Origin: a virus
Reading direction: 5' to 3' (one strand)
DNA: 64,000 bases
IMG/VR virus record: IMGVR_UViG_3300045988_149331
Coordinates: 36,686-100,685 of that record
Position numbers and translations under genes: made by a program. The first letter of the stretch is position 1. The number at the start of each line of letters is the position of its first letter. The notes under the pieces were generated by a model that searched no databases, was not told the origin of the DNA, and was given only the letters and a program-made list of their open reading frames with translations. This document shows positions 1 to 61,276 of the stretch, one piece after another.

Positions 1-1687
1 GGGTGTTCAGTTCTTGAGACAACTTGTTGTAGTTATCCTCCGCGTCTTGCTGCTCCTTAAGAGCCTTCTTGGCTGCAGGAGAAGTGGTGAGCGGCAGTTT
101 CTGAATTTCATCACGAGCGTCTTGAACGGTAATCACCTTGGCGGAATCATCCAGTACAGCTTCGATGATAGCCCCGTTGTAACCAGCGTAACCACGGGCG
201 TTTTTGTAAGACGATGTGTGCTTGTACCCCGACGGCGTTTTATTGGCGTTATCAGAATCGTTGACGTGGAAATAGATTCCTTCGCCGTAAATACCTTGCG
301 TACCGTAGAAACACGCGTCGTTGTACTTGAAGTCGTCAGCGTAATATTCCGTATCACTGCCGCGCACATTAACGCCACGGAACAGATGGTATTTTGACTG
401 CGCCACCTTGGCCCAGAAGGTATTATCATCTACAACGTCAGGACGCACATCGAAACCGCGGGCCTTGCAAATATTGGACAGCATCTCCCATCCTACCTGA
501 TTATTGGTATTGGTTAACTTGTCCGCAGCACTGATTCCGCTGACGCTACTGTAGATTTCCGCCAACTCATCATCGGTGAACTCGCGGTACATTTCCGCAT
601 CCGGTTTCAGAGTTCGCGGCGCAACCTTTCTTTGCTGGCGTTGCAACTCTATCTCGTACTGTCCTCTGATGCGATCAAGGTCTTTGAAACGAGCCTCGAT
701 GATAGCACGCATCTTCGGTTTAGAGGCCAATTTACCAGCGTCGAAAAACGCCAACACCTCGTCTTTGCGTGCCTTTAAGGCGTCAATTTGGTTGATAAAA
801 TCCCGCGGCGTAAGGTTAGCTACAATCTGTGGGTTGTAGCGAACCATGCCGTCCCAGTCGATTTGACTGTTAAAAGGCTTATTGGCGCCTTGTGCTCGGT
901 AGTCGAACGTACCGCCGTTATCCACGCGATAGACTTTGCCGGCGGCGTCAACCAAGCAGTTGTCATTCTGGTAGATATCCCAGTTGGCCAAAAAGGCATC
1001 AACGGCGAAGCCTTTGGCCATAGCGTCATAGTCCTTGGCCTGCGGCTCACTCATACCGCGCATGTACGGCGAAATAAGCGTCAAATCGGTTCCGTCGTCG
1101 TACATTTCATATTCTGGCGTGTCGAGCCCCAAGAGGTCATAAACCTGCGCGGCGTAGTATTCTGCAGCAACGTGACCGCGATTAGTGTTTTTAGAACTCT
1201 TGACGACAAACTCACGCCCCTTAGAGTCCTTCATGAGTTTGGCTCCAGTACTACCGCCGAGGTCCTGCACATAGGTGAGGTCTGAAGGATCGGCAGGGAA
1301 CATCTCGTTCAACTGCTTCTCTTCCTGAGCCAGCATGGCTTTAGAACGAAAGGCTCCTTTTCCAATAGGTTGGCCGTTGGCGGTCTTGTAAACTCGCCAG
1401 TCGTACGTCGTCTTGGCGTTAGGAGTCAGCGTCCAAATGTACACCACGCCATTCACGACCTTGGTCTGGCCAGGCATGATGGCTTTGGCTATCTCGGGGT
1501 CTTGATCGATACCGTGGATGTGGTCATACACCGATTTGGCGACGTACAGGTTGTACGAATAGTCGTCAGCAAAGTCTTCAGACCGCGCCTTATACGCTTC
1601 ACACGCCTTCTCCAGTACGGCATCAGATATCTCGCCCTCAGCGTTACGGAGGGCGAAGACATCGAGTGCTTTTCTGAGTTCATCCAT
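1..1687 (-). CDS. large multidomain protein, 3' end cut by window edge: protein-kinase-like core plus PARP/ART-like domain
   Basis: Absent from supplied ORF track (no stop inside window). Hand translation from ATG 1687-1685 (MDELRKALDVF...) stays open to position 1 (562 codons). Motifs GGSTGAK..VVK, DAFLANWDIYQNDN, VDNGG (kinase-like); LFRGV..(33 aa)..YGEGIYFHV..IIEAV (PARP/ART-like). Confidence 0.6.
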   Translation of the reverse strand, partial: MDELRKALDVFALRNAEGEISDAVLEKACEAYKARSEDFADDYSYNLYVAKSVYDHIHGIDQDPEIAKAIMPGQTKVVNGVVYIWTLTPNAKTTYDWRVYKTANGQPIGKGAFRSKAMLAQEEKQLNEMFPADPSDLTYVQDLGGSTGAKLMKDSKGREFVVKSSKNTNRGHVAAEYYAAQVYDLLGLDTPEYEMYDDGTDLTLISPYMRGMSEPQAKDYDAMAKGFAVDAFLANWDIYQNDNCLVDAAGKVYRVDNGGTFDYRAQGANKPFNSQIDWDGMVRYNPQIVANLTPRDFINQIDALKARKDEVLAFFDAGKLASKPKMRAIIEARFKDLDRIRGQYEIELQRQQRKVAPRTLKPDAEMYREFTDDELAEIYSSVSGISAADKLTNTNNQVGWEMLSNICKARGFDVRPDVVDDNTFWAKVAQSKYHLFRGVNVRGSDTEYYADDFKYNDACFYGTQGIYGEGIYFHVNDSDNANKTPSGYKHTSSYKNARGYAGYNGAIIEAVLDDSAKVITVQDARDEIQKLPLTTSPAAKKALKEQQDAEDNYNKLSQELNT

Positions 1688-3486: not shown

Positions 3487-4296
3487 CTACACCTCCACCG
3501 CGTCAAAGTCAATATCAAATTTCTTGTACACAATTCGCAACTCCGGTACGCCGTTAATTGGCTTCTTCTTTTCGTCAATACGAGCGTTCAACGGCCAGCG
3601 CTTGAGTATGATGTCGTGCGCCCGCTGCACGCGCTCCTGGCGTTCGTATACGTCTTGGAGACCGCCGCCCTGGTTGGCTTCCTTGTTCATCTTACTCTGG
3701 AGAAGGAACCGCACGAACCGCGCGTAGACGATTCCCAGGTACATGCATTTCAACGAATAGTCGATGTCGCATTTCAACTCCAACTTTTCGTCAAAGTCCA
3801 GTTCCAGCGTCCGTAGCCCCTTGAAGACGATCAAGTGTGGAATACCGCCGTACTTGAAGCGCGGGCTGACGTCGGTACAACTCCAGTCGAAGGCGCTCTT
3901 GCCCATCGTTCCATACTCAAAATCGGTTTCCATGACCTCGCGATCAAACTCCTCAAAGAACTCGCTGAGTTCTTCCGGCGTTTTCAACGACAGCCCACAC
4001 TTGGCTTCACCGTCGATCGAGTAGAAGAAGTTGGCGATGTCGTCATCCATCACCACCACCGGGTGGTTCTTGCGGAGGTAGGTGTTCTTGCAGAAATTTA
4101 CCACGTAGCTGTAGCCGCGGTTCGAGGCCGGCAGCACAATCAGCCGCTCACGGGCGTGACCCGCTTCGACGTATTTTTCAACGTCCTCCTTTTCGACCAC
4201 AATATTGTAGTCAACGCCGCCCTTTTCCAACAGTTTAGTCGTGACGCACTTGGGGCGGTTCTTGGACACGACGAAGAATTGACAGTTCATACTCAA
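3487..4296 (-). CDS. GT-A-like (DxD) glycosyltransferase-like protein, paralog of 21202-22017
   Basis: N-terminal beta-strand FFVVSKNRP, DxD motif VVMDDDI, C-terminal KCDIDYSL..NQGGG..Y segment alignable with KEDFAVAC..NAAGG..Y of 21202-22017; ATGA overlap with upstream gene. Confidence 0.35.
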   Translation of the reverse strand: MSMNCQFFVVSKNRPKCVTTKLLEKGGVDYNIVVEKEDVEKYVEAGHARERLIVLPASNRGYSYVVNFCKNTYLRKNHPVVVMDDDIANFFYSIDGEAKCGLSLKTPEELSEFFEEFDREVMETDFEYGTMGKSAFDWSCTDVSPRFKYGGIPHLIVFKGLRTLELDFDEKLELKCDIDYSLKCMYLGIVYARFVRFLLQSKMNKEANQGGGLQDVYERQERVQRAHDIILKRWPLNARIDEKKKPINGVPELRIVYKKFDIDFDAVEV

Positions 4297-4973
4297 AAGG
4301 GTAATTCACCTTCGGACCATATTTCCTCGGGTGGGTTTTGTTCTATGAAACGTTGATATTTGTCTATCGTAGGCTCCAGCGACGGGTAGAACCTAAAGGC
4401 AAGTTCCCACTTGACGTCAAACATATCGTCGCACGGGACTTTGCGCTTCATCAACACATTTTCGTTGTTGTAGCACTGAATTGTGACTTGCTGACGGCCA
4501 CGCGAAGTGTACGAATAGGGAAAGTCGCGATAGTACTCAGCCAGCGAAACCGTATCTTGAACAACGTCGTGAATGAACTGATTGAAGGGGTGTCCCAGCC
4601 CCAACGGCGCCAATACGGTATAACCACGGTTGCGTCGTAGGAAACGACGCAAATGGTCGCGAAGCGTTTGTTCGGCGAAATTAAGCGTGTCAGTTCCGTA
4701 TTTAGTTCTGAGGTACGTATAGACGCTGGAGAGATTAAAGTCCTTGAAATGGTCGCCAAAATCGCTACAAATCGCATCTTCGAACCCAGTGTCGAAGACA
4801 TCCATCGTAATACCCATGAATTCATAGAGCGATCGCTGTTCTACAACGCGGTTTGGGTCGCTATCTACAGTAAGCACCCGAACGTCATATTCGGGTGCTA
4901 CTAAAACGTGACAAGCGCTCATCAGGAGATCACCCGCGTGAGGCTCGACACACAGGTACTTTATTTTTCCCAT
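4293..4973 (-). CDS. PIG-L/LmbE-like deacetylase-like protein
   Basis: N-terminus LCVEPHAGDLLMSACHVL..DVRVLTV resembles the (v)aHPDDe..gG..L...V.vv.lT signature of PIG-L family; overlaps both neighbours. Confidence 0.4.
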   Translation of the reverse strand: MGKIKYLCVEPHAGDLLMSACHVLVAPEYDVRVLTVDSDPNRVVEQRSLYEFMGITMDVFDTGFEDAICSDFGDHFKDFNLSSVYTYLRTKYGTDTLNFAEQTLRDHLRRFLRRNRGYTVLAPLGLGHPFNQFIHDVVQDTVSLAEYYRDFPYSYTSRGRQQVTIQCYNNENVLMKRKVPCDDMFDVKWELAFRFYPSLEPTIDKYQRFIEQNPPEEIWSEGELPF

Positions 4974-5920
4974 GGCCGCTTGTAGATTTTCTCAGCGCAG
5001 GGGCCGTCTTTCGACACGTCCTCAGCCATCTTCCGGATTTCCGGCGTGATAGGCGGCAGCGTTTGCTTACCCATTTTGTCAGGCAGGAAGCCGACGCGGA
5101 CGCTTACGTGCGTACACCCCTGACACGGGCGGAAGCGGCGGTCGTTGTTGTACAGCATGACACGGGCGGCGTGAAAGCGCGGGTGGTTCCACAGGTCTTC
5201 GATGGGCATGTCGTGGATGTTGGCGATTGGGTACTCACCGCGGAAGTCATCACAGCACAGACACACCTGGCCATTCCACCTCACGTCCAGTTCGCGGAAC
5301 GGGAAGGTGCACCGCTTGTTGTTGAACGAATCGTCAAGCGGGAAGGCCGCGCCGCAGTGGTTGGCCAGGCGACGTGTCATCTTGTTGGTGTCGTCGTGGG
5401 CGATAGGCGGCAGCAAGCAGATACGACGGCCCTGCTTGGGGTAGTAGTACGGAACGCCGGGTTCCAGCGTCACGACGTTGTACTTATCAACATCGATCTT
5501 CTCGACGAAATTCCAGTCGCCGTTGGCCGTGTAGCAGTCCACCAGAATATCGTTCATACCTGCTCCGAACAGCGCGTCGAGGTACGCCTCGGTGTCTTCA
5601 GCGTGGTTCATGGCGTAACCGTTACTGTACATATGAAACACAGCCTTCGGCAAGTGCTTGCGGAACGTGGCGACGATGTCGATGAAGGCAGGATTCAGCG
5701 TCGGTTCGCCGTGCATAGCGAACACGAACTTACAGTTCCAACCCACCCGCGCTACCTCCGAAGCAATACGCTCGGCCGTTTCGACGGTCATGAAATTCCA
5801 GGGCTTGGTCCCCTTTTCACGCATACCGTGTAAACCGCAGAACGAACAACCGAGGTTACAGCCCTCGGTAGGTTCAATCTGCATGGTAAACGGGGGGTCT
5901 TGTACGATTTTGTTTTTCAT
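4961..5920 (-). CDS. radical SAM enzyme with SPASM/twitch-like C-terminal Cys-rich domain
   Basis: CNLGCSFC (CX3CX2C) at aa 21-28, GEPTLNP SAM-binding motif, C-terminal C..GQVCLCCDD...CQGC cluster pattern. Confidence 0.8.
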   Translation of the reverse strand: MKNKIVQDPPFTMQIEPTEGCNLGCSFCGLHGMREKGTKPWNFMTVETAERIASEVARVGWNCKFVFAMHGEPTLNPAFIDIVATFRKHLPKAVFHMYSNGYAMNHAEDTEAYLDALFGAGMNDILVDCYTANGDWNFVEKIDVDKYNVVTLEPGVPYYYPKQGRRICLLPPIAHDDTNKMTRRLANHCGAAFPLDDSFNNKRCTFPFRELDVRWNGQVCLCCDDFRGEYPIANIHDMPIEDLWNHPRFHAARVMLYNNDRRFRPCQGCTHVSVRVGFLPDKMGKQTLPPITPEIRKMAEDVSKDGPCAEKIYKRPWEK

Positions 5921-7993: not shown

Positions 7994-8165
7994 CTTCCTT
8001 TAATTCTTTTACCGCCGCAGCCGTAGCGTCGGCGATGTATTTTAGTACATCGCCTAACGCAGCGGCGTTGTTGGCGTTCCATTCGCGGATAAACCGATCT
8101 TCGTACTGAGTAACGGTGGGGAATGGCGACGGCAAAAAGTGGGTATGTTTGGCGTTGTAAGGCAT
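7947..8165 (-). CDS. hypothetical small protein
   Basis: 72-aa ORF whose ATG overlaps the ART gene stop (TAATG at 8163-8167); 3' end overlaps next gene by 47 nt, so uncertain. Confidence 0.3.
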   Translation of the reverse strand: MPYNAKHTHFLPSPFPTVTQYEDRFIREWNANNAAALGDVLKYIADATAAAVKELKEDGPKKNNLGRVSSEG

Positions 8166-9919
8166 TACTCTTGTTTGCTATCTTCCGGCAACCATTCCAT
8201 TAAGACACGATTTCCTTCAATCTTATGGACCTTATAATTTTGGTCTCGGCCAATTAAAAATTCCCCCTCCTCTCCTCCGTAAACCCCTACTACTGGAGCA
8301 ACCGGGCAACCCGCGGGAGCGATAATATCAAAATACATAGTCCCCTCGTCGTTGCTAATTTCAGGATAACATGTAGTGCTCATGAACGACTTATCGCTGA
8401 ACACCTCCCCCTCCTTGAGATTTTTAACGAAATTATCTGCATCGTTTTCAAACGTAAGTTTCCTGTATAAAACGATATTTTGTCCCACTTTATTTTGAGA
8501 AATAAACGTATCAATTCCGTTTATGAATTTATCCATTTTATCAGACGATACATCGACTTTGTTGCCGTAAAGGTATTTTCTCATTACAGCAAAGTCAAGA
8601 TCATCATCTTCGTCAAAATCGTCATCATGGTCTGCGGAATATAAAACAATAGCTTTTACTGCATCCGAATCGCTTTCGTCCATGAAATCCTCATAAGCGT
8701 CAACAATCTTATCAAAGAATTCAGTTGCATCGTCGCTGTTTAATCGTATGAATTTTTCGCCGTTTATGTCCAACCCACTTTTCCGTAAAGCCCATTTGTA
8801 CGCTCTATCGGCCTTTTTGAGAACTTTTTCATTCGCCTTGTCAGAGGGTAATCGCTCAATGTTTTTCGCAGTACTGTCGCCTGATAATGAAATATTAAAA
8901 CGTTCATTATCTGCTTCAAATTTCTTTTGTTCTTCTGCTTTTTCCCTTTTAACATCCTCGCTTTTTACCCAAAAAGCGATAGCGTCGTCTTTTGTGTCTT
9001 CAGGCACGATATTATTTCTTTTCAAGACATCAATCGCCTTTTTAGATAATTCTTCGGGGGTTAATTTATACTTTGAATACTGTTCGTCGGTCTTTCGTAA
9101 TTTACTCAAAAAGATGCCAGCTATCGTCTTTGGTGTATCGCTACCTCGTACTTGATCCAGCAAATCTTTTTCGAATTTCTCATCAACGGCATCTTCGTCT
9201 TTATTGTCGTCATCCTTTTCACTACCCTCCCTGGCGTCAGGATCGCCGAACTTGGACGCGGCTCCCTCGACGTCAGCGATCTCCTTCACCGTCGTGGTCT
9301 CGAAATTGTCAACATCGGCGTAGGGGTATTTGTCCACGCGGTAGCCTTCGCTGGTCTTGGTGACTACCAGATCGAAGCCGTCTTCGTCGCCGCCGACCTG
9401 CTTGATGAACGCGTGAGAAGCGTCTTCGACTCCAGCGTACTGCTCCAGGTCCTGGTCGTCCATCTGACGGAAGCCCATGGACTCAAACGAGGCCGTCGCC
9501 TTGGCGTCACCGTCAGCCAGGCCGTTACGCAACGAGGCGTCGCCCTTCTTGTTCTTGGCGCGAACGTTCACGCCGCGGCGTTCGAGTTCTGCGGTGGCCA
9601 CCTTGCGCATTTCAGCGTCAGCCGACGGATCGTTAGCCACTTTCACCAACGCCTCCTCCGAAGCCGAGCGGGCATGATTCTGGAGGCTGACGTTGCCTCC
9701 GGGAACGCCACCTTCACCCCCCTCAGCCGCGGGGTCTTTCTCCTTGGCTGCGTGACCGTACTCCTGACCCACACGTTGCAAGCGGCGGTTTTGAGCGTTG
9801 TCGGTGTATACACCGTGACGCGCTTTTTCGATTTCTACCTCTTCAGTTTCGGGGATGTTGACGAACCCCTTGAGGATTTGCTGTCGTTTTGCCTCACCGT
9901 AGTTGATAATCTCTTTCAT
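8165..9919 (-). CDS. C3/VIP2-type ADP-ribosyltransferase domain protein (MuF-associated toxin-like)
   Basis: C-terminal R-STS-ExE triad: VLYRKL, SFMSTT, GEEGEFLIG; long acidic linker; N-terminal shared modules. Confidence 0.75.
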   Translation of the reverse strand: MKEIINYGEAKRQQILKGFVNIPETEEVEIEKARHGVYTDNAQNRRLQRVGQEYGHAAKEKDPAAEGGEGGVPGGNVSLQNHARSASEEALVKVANDPSADAEMRKVATAELERRGVNVRAKNKKGDASLRNGLADGDAKATASFESMGFRQMDDQDLEQYAGVEDASHAFIKQVGGDEDGFDLVVTKTSEGYRVDKYPYADVDNFETTTVKEIADVEGAASKFGDPDAREGSEKDDDNKDEDAVDEKFEKDLLDQVRGSDTPKTIAGIFLSKLRKTDEQYSKYKLTPEELSKKAIDVLKRNNIVPEDTKDDAIAFWVKSEDVKREKAEEQKKFEADNERFNISLSGDSTAKNIERLPSDKANEKVLKKADRAYKWALRKSGLDINGEKFIRLNSDDATEFFDKIVDAYEDFMDESDSDAVKAIVLYSADHDDDFDEDDDLDFAVMRKYLYGNKVDVSSDKMDKFINGIDTFISQNKVGQNIVLYRKLTFENDADNFVKNLKEGEVFSDKSFMSTTCYPEISNDEGTMYFDIIAPAGCPVAPVVGVYGGEEGEFLIGRDQNYKVHKIEGNRVLMEWLPEDSKQE

Positions 9920-11616: not shown

Positions 11617-13245
11617 TTAGAGATAATCGATCTTCTGAATGAAACTCGTGAATCGTAATCTTGAACTTGAAATATACCCCGTTGCCCACGCTGTGAGCAA
11701 ATAATATCCTGCAGAAGCCATGTTGTAGTCTTTAGACCCGTCACCATCAACCACACGAAGTGTTTGACCGTTGGAGACGTTACAATAGATGATCACCTGA
11801 ATCGTGCCGCCAACACTTTCGTTTGTGTAGGCATCCAGTGCTCCGGGATTATCCAAGAAGCCCAAATTCAGCGTCCACACAGCAGACGTTATTGACGATG
11901 CGTTGAGATTGTAAAAATAACGATACCCGAGTCGGACGTTGTACGTTGAACCGCCGGGCAGATTCGAAAATCCAACACTTCCGCCAACTATTCCAACGGC
12001 CATGTGTCGTTTCAGGACGTTACGTTCAAAAATTGACGATGAATCCACCAATTTCTTAAGTATTGGACCTGTATCGCCACCTGTAATGATCTGAGCAATA
12101 TCGTCCCACAGCAACTTGAATGCATCACGCACGCTTCCCTCGACGTCGATGAAACCCATGTAGTCGATGTCAGGAAAATCGGTCTGTTGGCCGCCTATTT
12201 TAATGTTCTTAGATTCGCCGTATTCCGAATCAATATCCAGAATAGCCTGATGGAGCAGCGCGATAGCCTTTTCGACGATATCCCCTGCTGCCGGCATGAT
12301 GCCCTTGGTGTTAGGGTTGGGTGCGTAAGCCGACGAAAGACTCGCGCCAGTAGCCAGTTTGAGACGATTATACCAGCCTTGAATCTTGTTGAAAGCGGCG
12401 GTTATATCGTCGTTGGGTGTGAGGTCTTGTGGAGCAGCCACCGTAGCCGTTACGGGATTAACCTCGATCAACTTTGAGGTAAATATCATCTCACGCGAGT
12501 TGTTCTGCCAGTCCCGGACTATATCTTGTACGTCCTTGAAGACCTTATCCATTGCGGCGTAATCGGCCGTGTATTGCTTGTAACCGATAACGGTAGTATC
12601 GTCCGTCTGTTCCGAGACGATGACGCCTTTCATTGCCGCTGAAAAGTTGAAATACAACCCGTCAACAAACGCCAACGAGTTCTTCGGTGACTTAGATATC
12701 AGCGACTGAATAGTACGCTTCACCAGTGTGGTGTTCTCTCCAACCATACGCATGCCGTACAATACGTCAGTCATGGCGGGGTTGTCGGTAACGGACTGGA
12801 ACTGGAAATTGAGTTTAGAAGTCGCAGCGTCAAACGTCGCGACGACGTTATCGAAGAAATAGTTCGTGGAGGCGACGTACTGCGTAGTAGTCCCCTGGCC
12901 TGCGAGGTCTTCGACGATGATGTTGTTTTGCTTGTCCACGTACTGGACACGCGTCGAACCCACCACCCAGACCATAGTGTTCCAGTTGGCGTCAGAGTCG
13001 CGTTTAACGACGTGATAGAACGCACCGATAGGCAAGCCGCCGGGGAGGTTCGCTTTATTGATAAGGGCGTTGAAATCGGCTATTTCAGCGACAATTGCCT
13101 GCGACATCGGCACCCACTCCCCCAACGACTGGTTGTAACTCTTGTGGAGGCCGTCGGTGGTGTCGTACCAGATGATGGCCTGATTAGAGGGGGCGGTTGC
13201 GCCGATCGATATGCCGGCAATTGTTCCGATGTCTACAGTTGCCAT
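11617..13245 (-). CDS. tail fibre / receptor-binding-like structural protein
   Basis: N-terminus ...TAPSNQAIIWYDTTDGLHKSYNQSLGEWVP is typical of phage tail-fibre N-termini; beta-rich, next to portal. Confidence 0.4.
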   Translation of the reverse strand: MATVDIGTIAGISIGATAPSNQAIIWYDTTDGLHKSYNQSLGEWVPMSQAIVAEIADFNALINKANLPGGLPIGAFYHVVKRDSDANWNTMVWVVGSTRVQYVDKQNNIIVEDLAGQGTTTQYVASTNYFFDNVVATFDAATSKLNFQFQSVTDNPAMTDVLYGMRMVGENTTLVKRTIQSLISKSPKNSLAFVDGLYFNFSAAMKGVIVSEQTDDTTVIGYKQYTADYAAMDKVFKDVQDIVRDWQNNSREMIFTSKLIEVNPVTATVAAPQDLTPNDDITAAFNKIQGWYNRLKLATGASLSSAYAPNPNTKGIMPAAGDIVEKAIALLHQAILDIDSEYGESKNIKIGGQQTDFPDIDYMGFIDVEGSVRDAFKLLWDDIAQIITGGDTGPILKKLVDSSSIFERNVLKRHMAVGIVGGSVGFSNLPGGSTYNVRLGYRYFYNLNASSITSAVWTLNLGFLDNPGALDAYTNESVGGTIQVIIYCNVSNGQTLRVVDGDGSKDYNMASAGYYLLTAWATGYISSSRLRFTSFIQKIDYL

Positions 13246-13257
13246 AATAGGAAACGT

Positions 13258-13515
13258 TTAGCGTGAATATAGGTAGGCGGTACGGTCGTCCCAAACGAAA
13301 TTGAAACTCATATCCCCTTGAGGATATTCCGTGATGGTAATGCCGTTGGCGGTTGTTTCACGTTCGATACGCCAGCCCGGCTCTCCCTGGCCTGTGCCGA
13401 TAGGGGCATATCCGCGATACACGGTCCCCTCAGTGGAAGCGTCGATGATAGGCTTCGGCATGGCCTCCGAAAGCAACTGCACGATGGGTGCAGTATTCTT
13501 CTCGTTACTCGTCAT
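13258..13515 (-). CDS. hypothetical protein
   Basis: 85-aa co-directional ORF overlapping portal stop by 11 nt. Confidence 0.45.
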   Translation of the reverse strand: MTSNEKNTAPIVQLLSEAMPKPIIDASTEGTVYRGYAPIGTGQGEPGWRIERETTANGITITEYPQGDMSFNFVWDDRTAYLYSR

Positions 13516-15271
13516 GATCTATTGCTTTTTGTAAGTATTCGTCAAATGCGGCCACGAGCGGGTTTGCCTCACGGGCCTTCATAGTCTCTTCGTCGTCGCC
13601 TTGGGCGTAAAGGTCAAACGGGTTGCCGCCCTGGGCGTCGGCGTCTTCTTCGCCTTCACCACCAGCCACAGGCTCATCAGCCGGGCCGCCTGCTGCCTCC
13701 ATACCCATACCAGCGGCCTCTTCGAATGGGTTTCCACCGCCCATTCCCATACCGCCCATCGCCTGCTGCTGTTGCTGCTTGGCGCTGAGGGCTTGTTGAA
13801 TAACGGAGTTTTCGATAGTATCACCACCCTTTTCTTCGCCGATGGCGGGGAGGTCCCACTTTTCGCGAATTTCATCGACGGTCTGGAAGGCTTGAAGGCG
13901 TTTGATGTCCATATCCAACTCCTCGGAAATAGTCATTCCGTTGAGGCCCATGAACACGAACTCAAAGTCAGGGTTAATCTGGTCAACGATGAACTTGTTA
14001 ATCTTACGCTGGATGAACTTCAACAGCGGATACAGACCCTTGTCTTTCGACTGCTCCATACGTTGTTTTTGGCCATCGCCAAACGTCAGGCCGCTGTTGT
14101 TAGAACGTGATATGTCCCAACCGATTTCCGTCGGGTCGATACAGTACACAGCGCAAGCGATCTTAATCAGGTATTCCATCCAAGACGTGTACTCCATATC
14201 ACGGTTGTTCTTCTGGAGGTCTACCCAGTCAATATCACCTTCGACGACAGGCGTCTTCCACGACTGCATAACGCCTGAAATCATCGCCTGCCACTGCTGT
14301 TTGAACTGCTGAAGCGAAGCCTCGTTGACGTTGCCCTTGATACGCAACAGACCCTTCGGGGCTGACCCCTGTGAGAAGAAACGGCGGTTGTACTCATCAC
14401 CCCAAAGCATCGACGTGACGACGTTGATCAACTCTTCCAACTCGGAGTTCCCGTAGCCGTTAGCGTAGATAGACGTTGACGGGTTGCGGATTCCAAAGCA
14501 CAACTCCCATGGATAGAACTGTGCCACCTTGGCTGTTTGGTACACCTGGACGTAGGCCGGGTAGTAACCGTCGATTTTTTGCCCCCAGTTTTGGCGGTCA
14601 TCCATCATTACGCCGCGGAAATACGGGTTGTCGTATTCACCATCAAAGTACGAATCTGCCAACCGGAACGTAGCAGCGTCTACAGCCTGGAAACGTACCA
14701 ATTTACCGCGGCGATTGCGGATACATTCAAACGTCAGCTGGTCGAACGTCAACGAGTCGTCAACGATCTTACGTATGAACTCGTCAAATTCGTCACCATC
14801 CCACGCAGCAGTATCGCCACAGTTTAGGATGAAGTCCGTGATGGACGAAGCGATCTTGCAGTCTTGGGAGTCCATTTTCTGCTCCATACCGTGACGCGGC
14901 TTGCGTCGAATAACGAAGCCCGTCGAATAGCGGTCGGCCTGCGGTTCAGCAAAGTCGGCCACCTGATTCTTACGGGTCTTGATGATGGAGTTGATAATGG
15001 GGGTGCGGCTCATCCGGCGCAGCGTCTCGTACGAGAGTGAGAACGGCTTATCCTTGTAACCCAAAAACGAGTTGAACTCCAACGGGTCGATGAGATATGC
15101 CTTGGGGGCCACGTTGGCGGGCTTGCTTTGCTGGTTAAATATTTCGGCCGCTTTGAGTATGTCGGACGGGTTATCACCACGCAGCGCCTTCTCCACCAAC
15201 AGCGATTTGCGGATGGTCAAGGCTTGCATGGCGCGTTCTACCGATTCCAATCTTTCTTTTACACCGGACAT
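13505..15271 (-). CDS. portal protein
   Basis: RRFFSQGSAPKGLLRIKGNV..SLQQFKQQWQ..G..QSWKTPVVEG..WVDLQ....MEY..W.EYLIKIACAVYCIDPTEIG follows the conserved portal core pattern; Gly/Met- and acid-rich C-tail. Confidence 0.7.
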   Translation of the reverse strand: MSGVKERLESVERAMQALTIRKSLLVEKALRGDNPSDILKAAEIFNQQSKPANVAPKAYLIDPLEFNSFLGYKDKPFSLSYETLRRMSRTPIINSIIKTRKNQVADFAEPQADRYSTGFVIRRKPRHGMEQKMDSQDCKIASSITDFILNCGDTAAWDGDEFDEFIRKIVDDSLTFDQLTFECIRNRRGKLVRFQAVDAATFRLADSYFDGEYDNPYFRGVMMDDRQNWGQKIDGYYPAYVQVYQTAKVAQFYPWELCFGIRNPSTSIYANGYGNSELEELINVVTSMLWGDEYNRRFFSQGSAPKGLLRIKGNVNEASLQQFKQQWQAMISGVMQSWKTPVVEGDIDWVDLQKNNRDMEYTSWMEYLIKIACAVYCIDPTEIGWDISRSNNSGLTFGDGQKQRMEQSKDKGLYPLLKFIQRKINKFIVDQINPDFEFVFMGLNGMTISEELDMDIKRLQAFQTVDEIREKWDLPAIGEEKGGDTIENSVIQQALSAKQQQQQAMGGMGMGGGNPFEEAAGMGMEAAGGPADEPVAGGEGEEDADAQGGNPFDLYAQGDDEETMKAREANPLVAAFDEYLQKAIDHDE

Positions 15272-22036: not shown

Positions 22037-24757
22037 CTAACCTAACATGTCGAACTTAAATCCCGTCGTCATACGCGAAGCCGCCAAGTCAGCCAACCAG
22101 AACGAAGACGAAATATCGTCATGACTGCCGACGCTCTCCAGCCCCTTTTCGGTGAAGGCTACTGAACCGAGGTCTTGGAAGATGAGGTCCTTGACCTGCT
22201 GTGAATAGACGTTCCCCACCGGGATGTGAATCTTACCGCGTTCGAACAGCGTCGATAGGTGGGGCCATCCGGTCTTGAGGTCATATTTGTCGATTCCAGT
22301 TGTATGGCCGATGACGGGCATCCCTTCGGTATCAGCTGTTTCGACGAATATCTGCTGAAAGGTGTTATTCTCCATCACGATCAGGTCAGGCCGGAAACGG
22401 GAATTTATACGCCGCAAGACATTCATCTGCTCGAAGAACTTGGCGCCTTTTTCGCGGTAAAGGTGAAGCAGCCAACGCTCATCAGTCAGTTCGTCAATAC
22501 CCCACACGCTGAATACCGCGTAGTCAGCGCCGACGTTGGCTGAAATAGCGAAGTCACAGCCAACGACTACCTTGGAGAACTTGATGGGGAACTCTTCGCG
22601 TGAATCCACCAGCGTGTATTTCTCCATCCTCAGCAGCGACCGCGTGAGAATTTCCATCGGGAAAATAGACGATTCGTTGGTGATCGGGCGGCAAAGGTTC
22701 TCGCGCGAGAAGATGATCGACCCCTGGGTCTCCTTTTTATCCATCAGATCCTTAAACGACCAACGCTGCGGCCACAATATTCGCCCGTTGGGGAAGATGG
22801 CCGGATATTCGATAACGAACCAACCGTTCTTGGTCTTCAGGTCGCCATAAAGGTCTTCAGCGTGAAACGGTGTACCGACGACGATAATTTGGCCGCCAGG
22901 TACGAGCATGTTCATAATTACGGAGTGGAAATAGTCGGTGGATTTGTTCCGTTGGAGAGCCGAATAGATGACGTTATCCTTCAGACCATCATCGACGATA
23001 ATCCAGTACGGGTGAGCGCCACGCACCGAAGAACCAAAACCCTTGCCTGTCAAACGCGCGCCGTTACGGCACACTATATTGGTAGCTGACCAGTTGGCTG
23101 ACGTTGACTGAGGATAGAGTCGTTCCTTCAAGATTTCGTTTTCCTCGATGGTACCCTTCAGAATCTCCAAAAGGTCAACGCTCTGTTGTAACGAGAACGA
23201 AAACAGAAATCCGCGGTTCGACGACGCCACGGTGGGACGCTTCGAATAACGAACGCTTGACGGCTTTTTGTAGCGGTACAACTGCCACGCTGCGTAGGCG
23301 TTGGAGAAGTAGAACGAGTTGTGAGCAACCGTTCCGTCGCCCAGTACGAAGCGATGGTCGCCATCGGTGGTGATCGAGACATATTCCCCTTCGCCAACAG
23401 GCGTGATCTTCAACGACGATACCACCGTAGGGTGAACACCATCGATAGTTCCCCAGTCTTTGTGTGACGTCTTGGTAGACCAGTCGGTTTGGACCTTTTT
23501 ACGGGCTATTTTCACGGGGATTCGATCCAGTTCGCCAGAAATAGTTACACACCACGACGAATAGTCACGCCCTAACGCCTTACAATACCGCGTTCCACCG
23601 CCCATTCGCGTACAGAAGCCAAGACTGTCGGCCAGGTTCTTCACGTCACACACCAGCTGGTAGTTCGTATTACCGAAGTGATAGCCACCCTGCCAGTAGT
23701 TACCGTCGGAATCGATCAACCCAGCCAACACCTGGAGGCGGACTGCTTCGCTGTTGACGAGATACTGCTCTGGAATGTGTTTATTGTAAAGCAGGTTGTA
23801 GCCCTTCAACACCCTTTCAATCGGGTTACGCTTACCGCGACCCCGAACGCCGACTCCAAGCGTCACGACAAGTCCCTTTTGGCTGTAGCGAAGCCCCGTG
23901 CGCTCGGCGTAGCCGCGGAGATATTCACGCACTTCAGGGTCGGCGGTGGTGATCTTCTGGTTGTTGGAGTTGCCGTCACCTAACCAGTACCCCAAGAAAT
24001 ACGGCTCCAACGTCACAGGCCGTGCTGGATATTGTACCGCTACCTTGAAACCACGATAACGTTCCTTGATCCAGTTGGGGGTCTTACTTAACAGGGTCGG
24101 CATATCAATGTCCACTATCCGCTTCGACGCTGTATCGATGGAGCCGTTGCGGTCCTTTTCGATCAGCGTACAAATGTGACGCGAATTGACCGTGTAACTA
24201 TCACCGCGCGACTGGTCGATACGGTACATCGTGGAATCGTGACCGCGGTGCGTAGCCACCACACGGCGTGGTGTAGAGTTGATACCCATCAACAGATCGC
24301 CAACCACAACGTCTTCTACCCTCTTGATGGTTCCGTCGTACATCCTCACTGGTGTTCCAACAGCCTCACATTTCCCGTGGTCACGAGCAGCGTTGATACA
24401 CAGTTTCTTGTGCTGGTGAACTAAATCGCCCCACTCCAGGTGGTGCCACGATAGTTGAAAGTCGGGGATAACGGAAGTGATGAAATACGTCAAATTGGCA
24501 CACCGCAGCGTGTCTTCCACCACGGCAGAAATATTCTCTTCATAGCGCGGCTTAAAGTCGATCGACGCGTCACCTGTGTACATCACCTTGTAGGTGTCTT
24601 CCATCAACGCCGCGAATATATCGTCAACATCGTGTGAGTCGCCACTCATCAACTCATTCAGTCCGCGCTCATCCAGCCCCTCGATTATTTCATCAACGAG
24701 GTCCAGGCACGCCAAACGGTGCGTCACCGACGGCGATATAATAGTGTCTAAACCCAT
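22037..24757 (-). CDS. terL: terminase large subunit, interrupted by an intein
   Basis: Walker A reconstituted as RDHGK|S across the intein; downstream ATPase/RNaseH-like nuclease regions (IIVDDG, VGCDFA..GADYAV). Confidence 0.85.
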   Translation of the reverse strand: MGLDTIISPSVTHRLACLDLVDEIIEGLDERGLNELMSGDSHDVDDIFAALMEDTYKVMYTGDASIDFKPRYEENISAVVEDTLRCANLTYFITSVIPDFQLSWHHLEWGDLVHQHKKLCINAARDHGKCEAVGTPVRMYDGTIKRVEDVVVGDLLMGINSTPRRVVATHRGHDSTMYRIDQSRGDSYTVNSRHICTLIEKDRNGSIDTASKRIVDIDMPTLLSKTPNWIKERYRGFKVAVQYPARPVTLEPYFLGYWLGDGNSNNQKITTADPEVREYLRGYAERTGLRYSQKGLVVTLGVGVRGRGKRNPIERVLKGYNLLYNKHIPEQYLVNSEAVRLQVLAGLIDSDGNYWQGGYHFGNTNYQLVCDVKNLADSLGFCTRMGGGTRYCKALGRDYSSWCVTISGELDRIPVKIARKKVQTDWSTKTSHKDWGTIDGVHPTVVSSLKITPVGEGEYVSITTDGDHRFVLGDGTVAHNSFYFSNAYAAWQLYRYKKPSSVRYSKRPTVASSNRGFLFSFSLQQSVDLLEILKGTIEENEILKERLYPQSTSANWSATNIVCRNGARLTGKGFGSSVRGAHPYWIIVDDGLKDNVIYSALQRNKSTDYFHSVIMNMLVPGGQIIVVGTPFHAEDLYGDLKTKNGWFVIEYPAIFPNGRILWPQRWSFKDLMDKKETQGSIIFSRENLCRPITNESSIFPMEILTRSLLRMEKYTLVDSREEFPIKFSKVVVGCDFAISANVGADYAVFSVWGIDELTDERWLLHLYREKGAKFFEQMNVLRRINSRFRPDLIVMENNTFQQIFVETADTEGMPVIGHTTGIDKYDLKTGWPHLSTLFERGKIHIPVGNVYSQQVKDLIFQDLGSVAFTEKGLESVGSHDDISSSFWLADLAASRMTTGFKFDMLG
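23318..24370 (-). mobile_element. intein with LAGLIDADG homing endonuclease, inserted in terL P-loop
   Basis: Starts at Cys130 (CEAVGTPVRMYDG), LAGLIDADG motifs FLGYWLGDGNS and LAGLIDSDGN, ends ..GDGTVAHN followed by +1 Ser; 351 aa. Confidence 0.85.
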
Positions 24758-36189: not shown

Positions 36190-36729
36190 TTAGATGAACT
36201 TACGAGCGATCCACTGGATGTACTCCTGTTCCACAGCAGCACGTTCGGCGTCACCGCGTTGACTCTTTTGTTCACAGATATACGCCCGTTTAGCGATCTC
36301 GTAGCAGGTGTCGTTACTCATTTGTTCCATCATCCACTGGTAGGCGTCAAACGTTTCGTCGTGGATGATATTAGTCACCATGGCGCTGGCGTCGTGAAGG
36401 TCGATCGTGACCAACGGAGTGCAAGGGTTGTGTGAACGTTTAGGGAACAACATCAACCACTTACGGTACGCACCTTCGTTGTACTGCTCGATGCCGCGGG
36501 TGACGATAATGCCGTTGGAAAGACACTCACGGTGACGCTTATATGCCTTGTACGCTCGCTTGTGTATACGCTGTACTACCTCGTTCCACGACATTTCGTC
36601 AGGGGTGATTTTCTCTAACCCCAACAGGTAGCGACACCAAAAGAACGACGGACGGTATTCCCACCACGTTACAACGACAATAGCCAGCGCACACGCCAGT
36701 GCGGCGAATAGGGTGAATTTATCCTCCAT
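36190..36729 (-). CDS. hypothetical protein with N-terminal TM segment
   Basis: FTLFAALACALAIVVVTWW hydrophobic N-terminus. Confidence 0.5.
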   Translation of the reverse strand: MEDKFTLFAALACALAIVVVTWWEYRPSFFWCRYLLGLEKITPDEMSWNEVVQRIHKRAYKAYKRHRECLSNGIIVTRGIEQYNEGAYRKWLMLFPKRSHNPCTPLVTIDLHDASAMVTNIIHDETFDAYQWMMEQMSNDTCYEIAKRAYICEQKSQRGDAERAAVEQEYIQWIARKFI

Positions 36730-49927: not shown

Positions 49928-49957
49928 AGCCGCGGGAAAATGATGGAAACGCAGGAA

Positions 49958-51229
49958 CTATTTCTTGCCGAGTTTGGCGCGGATCGAAGCCAGCGAGCGG
50001 GCAGCAGGGCTTTCCTTTTCAGGTTCCGGTTCGTCGTCGAGTTCAGGTTCCGGCTCAGGCTCGGCCTCCGGTTCCGGCTCCTCGAGACCGAGGGCCTCGC
50101 GGATAGCGGCGCGAATCTGATCGTCGGTCGTGGACTTGTAGACCTTCACCGTGTCGCCGAGACCGTTGTCGCGGATGAACGCCTTGAGTTCGGCGCGGTC
50201 CATGTCAGCCAGCGGATCGTCGTCAGCGGCTGCGGGCTCCGGCTCTGCGTCAGGCTCGTCGTCGAGTTCAGGTTCCTCCTCCACAGGCTCCGGTACGCGA
50301 ACGCCCGGACGGTTCTTCTTGGTGCGAACGGGCGGCACGTCGTCTTCCTCGTCAACGTCACGACGTTTGGCGGCTTTCTTGGTGACCTTCTTCTTGGGCT
50401 CGTCGTCGGACTCGGCGTACTGAGCGCGGACCTTCTCCACGATCTCCAGCCATTCGTCGTCGCTGAAGATGTCGATACCGTTGGCCTCGTCGAAATTCTG
50501 GAGACCCTCCAGCGCTTTCTCGAACATTTCCAGCGTGTACGTTCCGGCGACCTCCTCGATGGGCTTCAGTTTCATGAACTTTTCGATGGCCTCGTCGGTC
50601 AGGGCGCATGCCTTGGGCTTCTTGCCGAGCGACACATCGTAGTAGTTCTCGCCCTTCTTCTTGTTGGGGTTCTTGATGTACTTGACGAACAGCGGCAGAC
50701 CCTCGTCGGGATCGGTGAACGGATCAGTCTCGATGGGTTCGTCCTCGTCTTCAGTGATGGCCAGGCGGTTCAGCGCGTCACGAACCGACTTCTTGAACTC
50801 CCACAGTTTGGGTTCCATGCCGTCTTCCTTCACCTCAGCGGCGTAGCACAGCCACGTCAGCGAAGGCAGCAGGCTGTCGCGCTGTGCCGTAACAGCAGCC
50901 ACGGCGGCTTCCGAGCCATGCGTCTTGACGTAGGCTACATACTCCTGGACGATGTCCATTGCGGTCTTGGCGTGGAACACAGAGTCCAGTACCGTACCGC
51001 GGCGATCGTCGCCGGCGTCAGTCACGAACGGCAGCCAGTAGCACTTGCGTGGTACGTAGAAATTGTCGTGGCCGGGGTGAGCCGGGAAGATGCGAATCTT
51101 CATCAGCCGCCCGTCCTCCAGCTGAAGGAACTCGGCGTTGCCGTTGTTGAGCATCGAGTTGTCTTCGTCGATGCGGGCTTTGAGTTTCTTGATTGGCGTT
51201 GCTTTAAGCAACTTTCGAGCATCATTCAT
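49958..51229 (-). CDS. hypothetical protein with long acidic (E/P/D) C-terminal region; possible ssDNA-binding protein by position
   Basis: 423-aa ORF between the recombinase and polymerase genes; EPEPEAEPEPEPELDDEPEPE tail; function from position only. Confidence 0.45.
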   Translation of the reverse strand: MNDARKLLKATPIKKLKARIDEDNSMLNNGNAEFLQLEDGRLMKIRIFPAHPGHDNFYVPRKCYWLPFVTDAGDDRRGTVLDSVFHAKTAMDIVQEYVAYVKTHGSEAAVAAVTAQRDSLLPSLTWLCYAAEVKEDGMEPKLWEFKKSVRDALNRLAITEDEDEPIETDPFTDPDEGLPLFVKYIKNPNKKKGENYYDVSLGKKPKACALTDEAIEKFMKLKPIEEVAGTYTLEMFEKALEGLQNFDEANGIDIFSDDEWLEIVEKVRAQYAESDDEPKKKVTKKAAKRRDVDEEDDVPPVRTKKNRPGVRVPEPVEEEPELDDEPDAEPEPAAADDDPLADMDRAELKAFIRDNGLGDTVKVYKSTTDDQIRAAIREALGLEEPEPEAEPEPEPELDDEPEPEKESPAARSLASIRAKLGKK

Positions 51230-51993
51230 TTGTTTTTAATTTTATTATGATGAGTAATATGAAAGCCTTTTGGAATTTCTTCCCCTATTTTTATACGTTT
51301 TATCGACTCACCGTCGGTTATATAAACCCTGTTAGAATTAGAAGCACCGATTTTTCGTTTCGTTTCCTCAGACAACGGTTTTCTTTTTACGCCGCGAATA
51401 GAAGCACTTAAACGGCGTTTTGCTTCTTCAGACATTTTGCGTCTTAGTATCAATTTATCCTCGGGGTGTTCGATGTAGCGTTTTCTTTGCGCTTCCGACA
51501 TGCGGAGACGTGATTCAATACTATGTTTTAAGGTCCCATTTTTACGTTTACTTTCGATTGCTTTAGCAATAGATTCTTTGCTCCTTTTTCGTCCTTTCAT
51601 TGCCATTGATATTTTTCTCCGCGTTTCATCTGTAAGTCTTTTATTCTTGTGAAACGTAGAATTTTTAAGCCGAGATGATGGCAATTTTGACGGGTTTATA
51701 TCAGAAGAGCTTACATTTCCATCTGCAATATTGTATCCAAATTTATGGTCTTGTGTTTTGTATAGTTTTATATACACATATTCCCACATGTTCAAATCGT
51801 GAGTAGTCGTACAATATCTCAGAATCCGACGTTCAAAATTCTCGCGACCGTATTTAGCAATGGCCTTAATTATGAGAACGCCGCTACCGAGATAGTAGTT
51901 GTCCCAATATTCGCTTCCTAATGTGTGTTGGCCGACATACTTTTTACCGTTTACTTTATTTGTCGTAAGATATATAAATCCCTTGTATTTCAT
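51226..51993 (-). CDS. free-standing GIY-YIG homing endonuclease (Seg/I-TevI-like)
   Basis: GFIYLTTNKVNGKKYVGQH...GSG; repeated NUMOD-like basic helices; stop overlaps the next start (ATGA 51226-51229); visibly AT-rich versus flanks. Confidence 0.8.
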   Translation of the reverse strand: MKYKGFIYLTTNKVNGKKYVGQHTLGSEYWDNYYLGSGVLIIKAIAKYGRENFERRILRYCTTTHDLNMWEYVYIKLYKTQDHKFGYNIADGNVSSSDINPSKLPSSRLKNSTFHKNKRLTDETRRKISMAMKGRKRSKESIAKAIESKRKNGTLKHSIESRLRMSEAQRKRYIEHPEDKLILRRKMSEEAKRRLSASIRGVKRKPLSEETKRKIGASNSNRVYITDGESIKRIKIGEEIPKGFHITHHNKIKNK

Positions 51994-60196: not shown

Positions 60197-60218
60197 GGGA
60201 TGAAGAGTAACTATGGCG

Positions 60219-61235
60219 CTATTTCTTAGCGGCTTTAGCTTTCTTGGCTGCGGCGGCTTTAGCCAGCGCGGCGCGAGCAGCGGCCTTGGGATCGGCCTTC
60301 GGTTCCTCGGCCTTGGGAGCGGGGGCTTCCTTCTTGGCGGTAGCCTTCAGATCGGCTTCCATCTTCTCGCGATTCTTGCCAAGACGGCTGTCGGTAGTCG
60401 AGACGGCGGCCTTGATGTCGGGGAGGTAGGTCTGAACGATTTCCATCGCATGTTCCCACGTGATGCCCTTGAGCCACGGCAGAGCGTTCCACGTCATTTC
60501 GAAATCGACACCGTCGTCGGCGAGTTTGTCCTGAGCAGCCTGACTGCGGAACGTGTTCAGAACGACGTTGGTCGTGGCGAAATTGCCGTCCTTCGAGTAC
60601 ACGTTCTCGAACATGATGGCCACGGGTTTCGAGTTGGCGCCGCCGTACTTGATCGAGATACCCTGCGACACGGCCACGTACTGGAACTCCTTCTCGGGGA
60701 AGAACTTGACCAGAGCCTTGCGGAGCAGGTCCATGTGCTCCGGAACGGTCTGCGGCTTCAAGCGAGTACCGCGTTCGCTGTTACGAGGCTTCTTGGCCTT
60801 GGCGGGCTTGATCTCCTTGGCGCCTTTAGCGGGCTTGGGTTCCTTCGGTTCCTTGGGTGCGGCTTTGGGGGCAGCGGCTTTCTTCTTCGGCGCAGGGGCC
60901 GGAGCCTCTTCTTCAGGCTCGGCCTCCGGTTCCGGCTCCTCTTCAGGCTCGGGTTCTGCCTCAGCCTCCTCTTCGGCGGCCTCATCGGCGAGTTCATCGG
61001 CCTGCTGTTCAGCCGGAGTGGCTTCTGCCTCGGGGGCGGCAGCCTCCTCGCCTTCCAGTTCGGCGAACGAACCGACGATGTCGATCAGGTTATCGATGGT
61101 TTCGTCGTCCATCCCCGGGATGCCGGCGTCTTCGAGCCGCTTGAGGAGAATCTCCTTGGCGGCCTCTTCGGTCTTTGCCTCGATGCCAAGTTTCTTCAAG
61201 CGCTCGGCGTTTACTTTCGAAATTTTAGTTGCCAT
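60219..61235 (-). CDS. hypothetical protein with acidic E/P/A and basic K/A low-complexity regions
   Basis: 338-aa ORF; AEPEPEEEPEPEAEPEEE linker, C-terminal AAAAKKAKAAKK. Confidence 0.5.
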   Translation of the reverse strand: MATKISKVNAERLKKLGIEAKTEEAAKEILLKRLEDAGIPGMDDETIDNLIDIVGSFAELEGEEAAAPEAEATPAEQQADELADEAAEEEAEAEPEPEEEPEPEAEPEEEAPAPAPKKKAAAPKAAPKEPKEPKPAKGAKEIKPAKAKKPRNSERGTRLKPQTVPEHMDLLRKALVKFFPEKEFQYVAVSQGISIKYGGANSKPVAIMFENVYSKDGNFATTNVVLNTFRSQAAQDKLADDGVDFEMTWNALPWLKGITWEHAMEIVQTYLPDIKAAVSTTDSRLGKNREKMEADLKATAKKEAPAPKAEEPKADPKAAARAALAKAAAAKKAKAAKK

Positions 61236-61276
61236 AGTTTTGTACGGTTTAATGAAACAATTGTTATTTGATTGAA

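Follow-up and report, generated by a model that had tools for sequence, protein, structure and literature searches.

A conserved head-module protein of uncultured gut phages is predicted to combine a HipA/CtkA-like kinase with a split ADP-ribosyltransferase-like module

Bacteriophage T4 packages the ADP-ribosyltransferase (ART) Alt in its virion and injects it, and bacteriophage T7 encodes the host-shutoff protein kinase gp0.7. Both proteins are discussed by Iyer, Burroughs, Anand, de Souza and Aravind (2017, PMC5512222), who described H-Y-D ARTs in virion-delivered polyvalent proteins, where such domains are present in one or many copies. An ART of this kind has His in strand 1, Tyr in strand 2, and Asp in strand 5, is related to PARP, and occurs 1 to 12 times per protein (PMC5512222). 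Here we analyze a gene at the left edge of a 64,000-nucleotide stretch of viral DNA, positions 36,686 to 100,685 of the IMG/VR record IMGVR_UViG_3300045988_149331 (hereafter the window). Its product, which we call the target, contains a kinase-like domain and an ART-like module. T4 Alt and T7 gp0.7 can be regarded as its functional analogues, one for each predicted activity. No sequence relationship between either of these proteins and the target was detected. Unlike the target, Alt belongs to the R-S-E clade of ARTs, and the two activities are divided between separate proteins, each from a different phage.

We regard the target as probably a two-enzyme phage effector of the polyvalent type. 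It would be made late together with the head proteins and would probably be packaged in the capsid, from which it would enter the host along with the DNA. A polyvalent protein has at least two effector domains in one polypeptide; the target has a kinase-like and an ART-like one, and it is encoded in a phage genome with terminase, portal, and major capsid protein (MCP). We infer packaging, injection, and a role in host takeover from the position of the gene and from the domain company of its relatives; both catalytic activities and the host targets are likewise predictions.

The minus strand of the window can be read from position 1687 to position 1 through 562 sense codons without a stop, and the probability of such an open frame by chance is about 1e-12. 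The initial annotation, made from the letters of the window, reported this open reading frame (ORF) as unlisted, with its stop outside the window. This proved correct: the ORF is missing from the program's ORF list because it runs off the window edge. The ATG start codon (1687-1685, minus strand) lies 6 nucleotides past the stop of the upstream gene. A full-length homolog with 98% identity (P0001) has 793 amino acids (aa). Therefore the last 231 codons of the target and its stop are beyond the left edge, and the window includes the N-terminal 562 codons (71%) of a gene of ~793 codons (1..1687, minus strand). A search for homologs that covered 5.8 billion proteins found 128 relatives with 36-98% identity. 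Many of these are ~790-830 aa long, at identity down to 36%, and are encoded on contigs of ~95-125 kb. Compared codon by codon with its counterpart in a near-identical contig (L002), the target gene shows 21 synonymous and 11 non-synonymous differences. Judging from these sequences, the gene is real and under constraint.

The window protein itself gave nothing useful in searches of Pfam, PHROGs, and NCBIfam. Only coiled-coil noise was obtained from PDB sequences with phmmer and with the full-length profile, and megablast of the target locus against 50,697 phage records gave no nucleotide match. Two short relatives were considered as natural C-terminal fragments and rejected: P0060 is an internal-deletion variant and P0108 is a frameshifted fragment. 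In P0060 (444 aa, on a 4.2-kb contig) residues 1-244 are joined directly to residues from ~595 to the end, and the kinase C-lobe is lost together with the N-terminal portion of the ART-like module. Residues 1-131 (1295..1687, minus strand) form an N-terminal region that is conserved in the family according to the family alignment and the AlphaFold2 model. It consists of three helices, a disordered linker, and a beta-hairpin motif PGQTKVV.GV.Y...T..YDWRV; a role of this region in virion incorporation or targeting is speculation.

The kinase-like domain occupies residues 132-352 (632..1294, minus strand). Its HipA/CtkA-like character is indicated by Foldseek, weak Pfam matches, PDB sequences, and phage homologs. 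The AlphaFold2 model of the full-length protein, built with 59 homologs, has a mean predicted local distance difference test score (pLDDT) of 87.4. In a Foldseek search of the PDB with this model, all 50 listed matches are protein-kinase-like folds. The best E-value is 2.5e-5 (ThurKC, the kinase domain of a lanthipeptide synthetase), eight matches have E<=1e-3, and AmiN, PKMYT1, PKA, and PI3K-gamma are also in the list; the best target coverage belongs to the HipA-like kinase CtkA, with TM(target) of 0.46-0.49. A kinase-only profile matched just two PDB sequences, DMPK and CtkA, both in register: DMPK on KPDN...DFG and CtkA on the Gly-loop/Lys/Glu elements and on LLGNFDRH. Kinase-domain homologs were found in the phages Dolphis, ECML-606-1, Mecenats66, DSL-LC01, and Phendrix with E-values from 1e-21 to 1e-30. 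Weak Pfam matches recur among the 59 family members: 22 to HipA_C, 9 to HipA_2 (31 of the 59 in sum), and 2 to Act-Frag_cataly, the actin-fragmin kinase family. A point that speaks against the assignment is that all HipA_C (PF07804) matches are below the Pfam gathering threshold (best E=0.0042), and membership in HipA_C is therefore not supported.

The active site can be followed residue by residue. The Gly-rich loop GGSTGA (residues 144-149; 1241..1258, minus strand, as are the motifs below) has an invariant GGS. It is followed by two invariant residues, K163 (1199..1201), the predicted ATP-binding lysine of beta-3, and E176 (1160..1162), the predicted glutamate of alpha-C. The catalytic loop DAFLANWDIYQNDN (residues 230-243; 959..1000), where D230, N235, D237, D242, and N243 are invariant, aligns to DTLLGNFDRH of CtkA and to KPDN of DMPK. 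In the motif DNGG (residues 256-259; 911..922), D256 is the equivalent of the metal-binding Asp of DFG and aligns to the DFG of DMPK. The set of residues that are invariant across the family and the homologs from Dolphis and ECML-606-1 is exactly the catalytic set, including D256-x-G-G. The motifs quoted in the initial annotation are all in the sequence: GGSTGA, K163 within VVK, DAFLANWDIYQNDN, VDNGG (255-259), and, in the module discussed below, LFRGV (435-439) and IIEAV (507-511). Its kinase-like core also agrees with the model, with the listed Foldseek matches, and with the invariant catalytic residues.

Thus a kinase fold with an intact active site is well supported by the predicted structure and the alignments. 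The target shares with the HipA-family and CtkA Ser/Thr kinases (PDB 3AKJ) the fold, the Gly-loop-Lys-Glu arrangement of the N-lobe, and the hhhGN.D catalytic loop. It differs from them in the spacing of the catalytic Asp and the DN motif, which is longer by one residue, and in its location inside a protein of a phage structural module instead of a toxin-antitoxin pair. As a protein kinase, residues 132-352 are predicted to phosphorylate Ser/Thr of host proteins using ATP.

A domain with a kinase fold might also have another function. It could carry out AMPylation or glutamylation, like SelO and SidJ, act on a small molecule, a lipid, or a nucleotide, or regulate the ART-like domain in cis. 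The presence of AmiN, PI3K, and ThurKC in the Foldseek list agrees with this possibility. It also agrees with the repeated pairing of the kinase family with two types of ART, which suggests a functional coupling; SidJ, itself of kinase fold, regulates the SidE ART. However, the closest relatives by Pfam and by PDB sequence are the HipA/CtkA protein kinases, and the Lys-Glu pair, the catalytic Asp, and the DxG are kept at the canonical positions. We consider a non-protein-kinase function unlikely.

The second part of the target is a module that is split by an insertion. A helical lead-in (MYREFTDDEL..., residues 353-396; 500..631, minus strand) also precedes the module in unrelated carriers. 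The N-terminal two-thirds of the module, with strands 1-4 and helices, are residues 397-533 (89..499, minus strand). An insertion of ~210 aa (residues 534-740) follows, which is specific for the family and consists of a coiled coil, a small alpha/beta subdomain, and another coiled coil; only its start, residues 534-562, is inside the window (2..88, minus strand). The last third of the module, residues 741-793 (GVYAALKGYDAM...SFMIVFNRSKIITRK), is outside the window. The initial annotation had called the part with the ART motifs the C-terminal region; in fact, this part is the middle of the 793-aa protein, and the ART-like domain is incomplete in the window.

The split was recognized with the profile A4, which was built only from 46 unrelated short carriers of the module. 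Against the full-length P0001 it gives a match in two pieces, residues 327-559 (E=7e-43) and 699-791 (E=1e-9), the second of which aligns GYDAM...FMIVFNRSK; therefore the module is split by the insertion. Stand-alone carriers, for example P0194 (208 aa), have an uninterrupted domain with the consensus GF..kP.VV / LYRG / G.G.YG.G[TI]Y[TA] / A..YA / hhRM.L / G.YAA.GYDAI / hhVhLNR.

The module is widespread. When a clean profile of residues 395-533 (A3) was used for an exhaustive HMMER search, 853 cluster representatives (50% identity) were obtained at E<=1e-3, 71 of them at E<=1e-10. The carriers are 159-2703 aa long, and the domain may be at any position and in up to five tandem copies. There are 3-5 tandem copies in P0121, P0130, P0135, and P0136; the five copies of P0121 (2703 aa) are ~360 aa apart. 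Arrays of the P0121 type echo the 12-copy ART-PolyVal protein of Iyer et al. (2017, PMC5512222). Ten short carriers gave nothing functional in Pfam, NCBIfam, and PHROGs; two PHROG families named "minor head protein" do match the module. By these searches the module is a large mobile superfamily without a Pfam, NCBIfam, or functional PHROG name.

Several comparisons point to an ART fold. When the 46 carriers were compared with Pfam, only ART-PolyVal (PF18760; four carriers, best E=0.002) and PARP (PF00644; four carriers, best E=0.017) were matched by more than one carrier, and the other 39 families were singletons. Among the 29 PDB sequences matched by A4 at E<=10, 27 are tankyrase PARP domains. 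In these, GaGIYFAENSSKSNQY of tankyrase aligns to GnGtYtasnketaesYA of the module, which corresponds to the strand and the helix of the nicotinamide pocket. We located the prototype of the polyvalent ART in the virion RNA polymerase (vRNAP) of Roseovarius Plymouth podovirus 1 (RPP1): LYHGTG...GLFFTNSLELARDYA...GGYDGAIV...IMVVKRD. Together with three divergent relatives, including one of a crAss-like phage, it made up a comparison set of four ART-PolyVal-type domains. An hhalign comparison of A4 with this set gave a local P of 7.9e-4 and a global P of 1.7e-5 over 120 columns with every motif in register, and reversed-sequence controls gave P=0.46-0.92. The model of residues 355-793 has pLDDT of 90.4, and the order of its secondary structure elements is compatible with an ART fold. 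A search of the viral models of BFVD returned uncharacterised phage proteins of the same architecture and, weakly, a PARP-like protein of IIV-6; this protein and PARP-1 belong to the few Foldseek matches that are not coiled coils. The C3/VIP2-type ARTs served as a specificity control: hhalign gave P=0.067, which is the null level (reversed nulls 0.043-0.046), and the STS and ExE motifs of R-S-E ARTs are absent from the module.

Conservation, counted over 79 carriers outside the kinase-containing family, marks the candidate active site. R437 in FRGV of strand 1 (377..379, minus strand) is present in 100% of the carriers, and its aligned counterpart in ART-PolyVal-type domains is the His of YHGT. 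G470 and Y472 are also at 100%; Y472, in GEGIYFH of strand 2 (272..274, minus strand), aligns with the Tyr of GaGIYFA in tankyrase, i.e., the Y of H-Y-E. Y500 in ARGYA (188..190, minus strand; 97% Y/F) aligns with the Tyr of SKSNQY in tankyrase and with ARDYA of RPP1. Beyond the window, D766 in GYD of strand 5 is conserved in 94% and N785-R786 in 92-95% of the carriers.

These counts correct one element of the initial annotation, which had proposed a PARP-like layout with Arg in place of His and the Glu of IIEAV as the third catalytic residue. A PARP-like ART with Arg for His stands in kind, through weak to moderate matches to the ART-PolyVal and PARP families of Pfam, to tankyrase, and in the hhalign comparison. 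The third member of H-Y-E does not stand: E509 (161..163, minus strand) is variable in the family and is Arg in 45 and Glu in 6 of the 79 other carriers. The conserved strand-5 acid is D766 in GYD, and therefore the pattern is closer to H-Y-D, that of ART-PolyVal, than to H-Y-E. YGEGIYFHV (467-475) is present as described, but it follows LFRGV after 32 residues and not 33. In the terms used for the ART clan (PMC7955679), RGV of strand 1 is R-S-E-like, YFx of strand 2 is PARP-like, and xxD of strand 5 is H-Y-D-like.

The module can be compared with the two known families. It shares with ART-PolyVal and Tox-ART-HYD2 the aromatic-[H/R]-G strand 1, G-h-h-F/Y-T followed by A..YA, a hydrophobic strand, G-Y-D in strand 5, and a terminal hhVh strand, all in the same order, as well as single or several copies in multidomain proteins associated with phage heads. 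It differs by the strand-1 Arg instead of His, by N-R after the last strand, by G-x-G-x-Y at 100%, and by the fact that PF18760 is never above threshold on the module; the family of the target additionally has the insertion. With PARP (tankyrase, PARP-1) it shares the nicotinamide-pocket element GxGIYFx...Y, which aligns with tankyrase, whereas its strand-1 Arg, its strand-5 Asp (GYD), and the lack of the PARP regulatory domain are different. All scores against PARP are below significance, and this is a resemblance, not membership.

A number of observations weigh against an ART assignment. None of the ART-related matches is statistically strong by itself, and all ART-PolyVal and PARP matches of Pfam are below the gathering thresholds. 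The tankyrase matches have E ~0.2 and cover only ~28 residues. A Foldseek search of the PDB with residues 355-793 gave nothing below E=0.8, with coiled-coil proteins at the top, and PARP-1 was matched weakly, at E=1.7 and probability 0.09. Neither the canonical His of strand 1 nor the canonical Glu of strand 5 is present. Other searches were also negative: the stitched ART-like domain had no Pfam match at E<=10, tblastn of the C-terminal half against phages at the same threshold gave chance matches only, the module hidden Markov models did not match the RPP1 prototype sequence, and a search for homologous proteins with the ART domain of RPP1 returned no matches. The module can be called a member of neither PF18760 nor PF00644. 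Taken together, five converging lines, each weak or moderate, give moderate support to ART homology, and the likeliest reading of the module is an ART-fold domain of R-Y-D configuration that is a distant relative of ART-PolyVal. Residues 397-533 and 741-793 are predicted to bind NAD+ and to mono-ADP-ribosylate a host macromolecule. The insertion may set the target specificity, because it separates strand 4 from strand 5, the place of substrate recognition in most ARTs.

The position of the gene is consistent with late expression. Nearly all genes of the window (GC ~51%) are on the minus strand, and those toward the target are ordered as large terminase (22037-24757, 906 aa), portal (13505-15271), C3-type ART protein (8165-9919), radical SAM enzyme, glycosyltransferase, a 585-aa protein, and the target. 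In the full contig a ~495-aa protein with a weak SU10_MCP match is encoded within ~4.5 kb after the target. In relatives with 38-39% identity, the target is also found between portal and MCP. The order of a ~480-aa protein, a ~600-750-aa protein, the target, and a ~120-140-aa protein, followed farther on by proteins of ~500-560 aa and ~495 aa, is kept in them too. Judged by this synteny, the target gene is part of the core head module in a large clade of gut phages that are uncultured and have genomes of ~95-125 kb. The closest portal of a cultured phage is that of Chryseobacterium phage MA9V-3, followed by SPO1-like myoviruses.

The terminase is unusually long, and besides terminase families its N-terminal residues ~100-390 also match a PHROG annotated as DNA primase. 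The C3-type ART protein (584 aa, minus strand) had been noticed in the initial annotation, and its C-terminal C3/VIP2-type domain is confirmed by PF03496 (E=2e-9). It is a second, independent ART of the same late operon, and its equivalent in L002 has 691 aa. The MuF-like protein that had also been claimed for the operon was not found by Pfam at E<=10 or by the MuF profile across the window. In particular, the 542-aa ORF directly downstream of the portal (11617-13245, minus strand), the usual position of MuF, has no Pfam or PHROG match and no signal with the MuF profile. Its sequence looks beta-rich. The lack of MuF in the window, together with the lack of a MuF or portal fusion in the target itself, is another argument against a polyvalent effector.

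The domain company of the module includes other enzymatic effector domains. Large carriers (1300-2700 aa) also contain Phage_Mu_F, NUDIX, Zeta_toxin and AAA_33 kinases, and C3-type ARTs (ADPrib_exo_Tox). The kinase-like domain is also found in giant proteins of cultured phages, whose genes have portal, terminase, or maturation-protease genes as neighbours. The gp66 protein of Gordonia phage Phendrix (1479 aa, L013 5722-10161, annotated as hypothetical), whose gene immediately follows that of the portal, has the kinase-like domain at residues 101-248 and the same split module at 1081-1210 (E=3.5e-26) and 1411-1475 (E=5e-4). A kinase-like domain together with a C3-type ART is present in gp117 of Pseudomonas phage Dolphis (1222 aa), in a 2253-aa protein of Escherichia phage ECML-606-1, and in ORF50 of Morganella phage Mecenats66 (1238 aa). 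In a 3289-aa protein of Actinomycetia phage DSL-LC01 no second domain was detected beside the kinase-like one. The proteins of Phendrix, Dolphis, ECML-606-1, and Mecenats66 resemble the target in having a homologous kinase-like domain, an ART, and a gene near portal or terminase genes. They differ from it in size (1222-2253 aa) and in other unannotated regions, and three of them use a C3/VIP2-type R-S-E ART. They are annotated only as "ADP-ribosyltransferase" or "hypothetical protein". The Pakpunavirus paper contains no relevant virion evidence on kinase-ART giant proteins.

Genes downstream of these proteins in two of the phages deserve mention. ORF52 of Mecenats66 (L014 10220-10963), two genes downstream of ORF50, is a NUDIX hydrolase gene, and Dolphis gp119 (L001 8230-9078), at the matching position, is annotated as "nucleotide phosphatase". 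These genes parallel the NUDIX-module fusions in MuF polyvalent proteins.

In five of the six lineages examined the kinase family is joined to an ART, via two unrelated ART clades: the target and the Gordonia phages have the R-Y-D module, and C3/VIP2-type ARTs take its place in phages of Pseudomonas, Escherichia, and Morganella. Of 139 further carriers of the module, 25 have the kinase, all with the architecture of the target. It is tempting to suggest that kinase and ART do not act independently but are functionally coupled, in two steps or by mutual regulation, and that the R-Y-D module is a new active ART clade that the databases miss. Possibly, phosphorylation primes or gates ADP-ribosylation of one target, or the kinase keeps the ART inactive until delivery. 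This stronger proposal is tentative, and we give it a low probability. In the two-enzyme effector as such, the kinase and the R-Y-D ART-like enzyme would modify host macromolecules early in infection.

The same data can be read structurally. The target might be mainly a structural or internal component of the head (scaffold, internal core, or ejection protein), with degenerate, non-catalytic domains that serve for binding or assembly. Its place as a core conserved gene between portal and MCP and its long coiled coils would fit such a role, as would a module that lacks the canonical His and Glu and has no strong ART match. Tandem arrays of up to five copies could also mean that the module serves for binding or has a structural role and is not an enzyme. 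On the other hand, the catalytic residues of the kinase are invariant across families with ~31% identity, which is unusual for pseudokinases. Across 79 unrelated carriers the R, Y, D, and N-R of the module show 92-100% conservation, and its companions include further enzymatic domains of effectors. We consider a mainly structural role quite unlikely.

With a two-enzyme effector as the preferred interpretation, the substrate of the module can still be debated. The H-Y-[EDQ] clade includes ARTs that act on nucleic acids. The module could be such a DarT- or CmdT-like enzyme that ADP-ribosylates DNA or RNA, or could act on NAD+ itself as a glycohydrolase, not on proteins, and might be an anti-defence enzyme. 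Phage ARTs with anti-defence roles are known, for example AcrIF11 (PMC12421852). In three MuF polyvalent proteins the module comes immediately after NUDIX, and a NUDIX gene follows the kinase-ART gene in Mecenats66; both facts are in line with this option. Nevertheless, Iyer et al. (2017, PMC5512222) predict that the related ART-PolyVal domains act on proteins, and we find a substrate other than protein very unlikely.

The region between the C3-type ART gene and the target includes a radical SAM/SPASM enzyme (4961-5920, minus strand) and a TAGT-type glycosyltransferase (3487-4296, minus strand; PF20691, E=5e-13; PHROG beta-glucosyl-HMC-alpha-glucosyltransferase). With several unannotated ORFs they make up the segment 3487-7490 (minus strand) inside the head module. 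The glycosyltransferase stretch differs even among near-identical contigs (L002 and L004), and TAGT was not called in L002, L004, L011, and L012, while the target is present in all of them. The segment therefore resembles a variable cassette, whose role might be the modification of DNA or protein. These two enzymes are encoded on the strand of the target, 2-4 kb upstream of it. That the target participates with them in DNA hypermodification, for instance by activating a hydroxymethyl base as a kinase, is hardly credible, because synteny with the glycosyltransferase is not conserved; besides, domain relatives of the target are found in polyvalent proteins of the head module in phages that have no such clusters, and to our knowledge the 5-hydroxymethyluracil (5-hmU) DNA kinases are P-loop enzymes and not of the kinase fold.

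Far from the target, the window contains two antisense ORF pairs with nearly full overlap: 49940-51250 (plus strand) with 49958-51229 (minus strand), 436 and 423 aa, and 60213-61271 (plus strand) with 60219-61235 (minus strand), 352 and 338 aa.

The target fits the already known theme of polyvalent effectors, and the new part is the kinase together with a previously unannotated ART-like module. If our interpretation is true, a large mobile superfamily (853 representatives) that is unnamed in domain libraries would gain a function. The module would represent an ART clade in which an R-type strand 1 is combined with a strand 2 of PARP type and an Asp in strand 5. The Gordonia phages Phendrix and GodonK, Pseudomonas phage Dolphis, and E. 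coli phage ECML-606-1 are cultured and offer experimental handles. The recurrent pairing of a HipA-like kinase with an ART in unrelated phages would lead to a testable coupling of phosphorylation and ADP-ribosylation in host takeover. Finally, a core head-module gene of abundant uncultured ~100-kb phages of the human and primate gut would encode a dual host-modifying enzyme.

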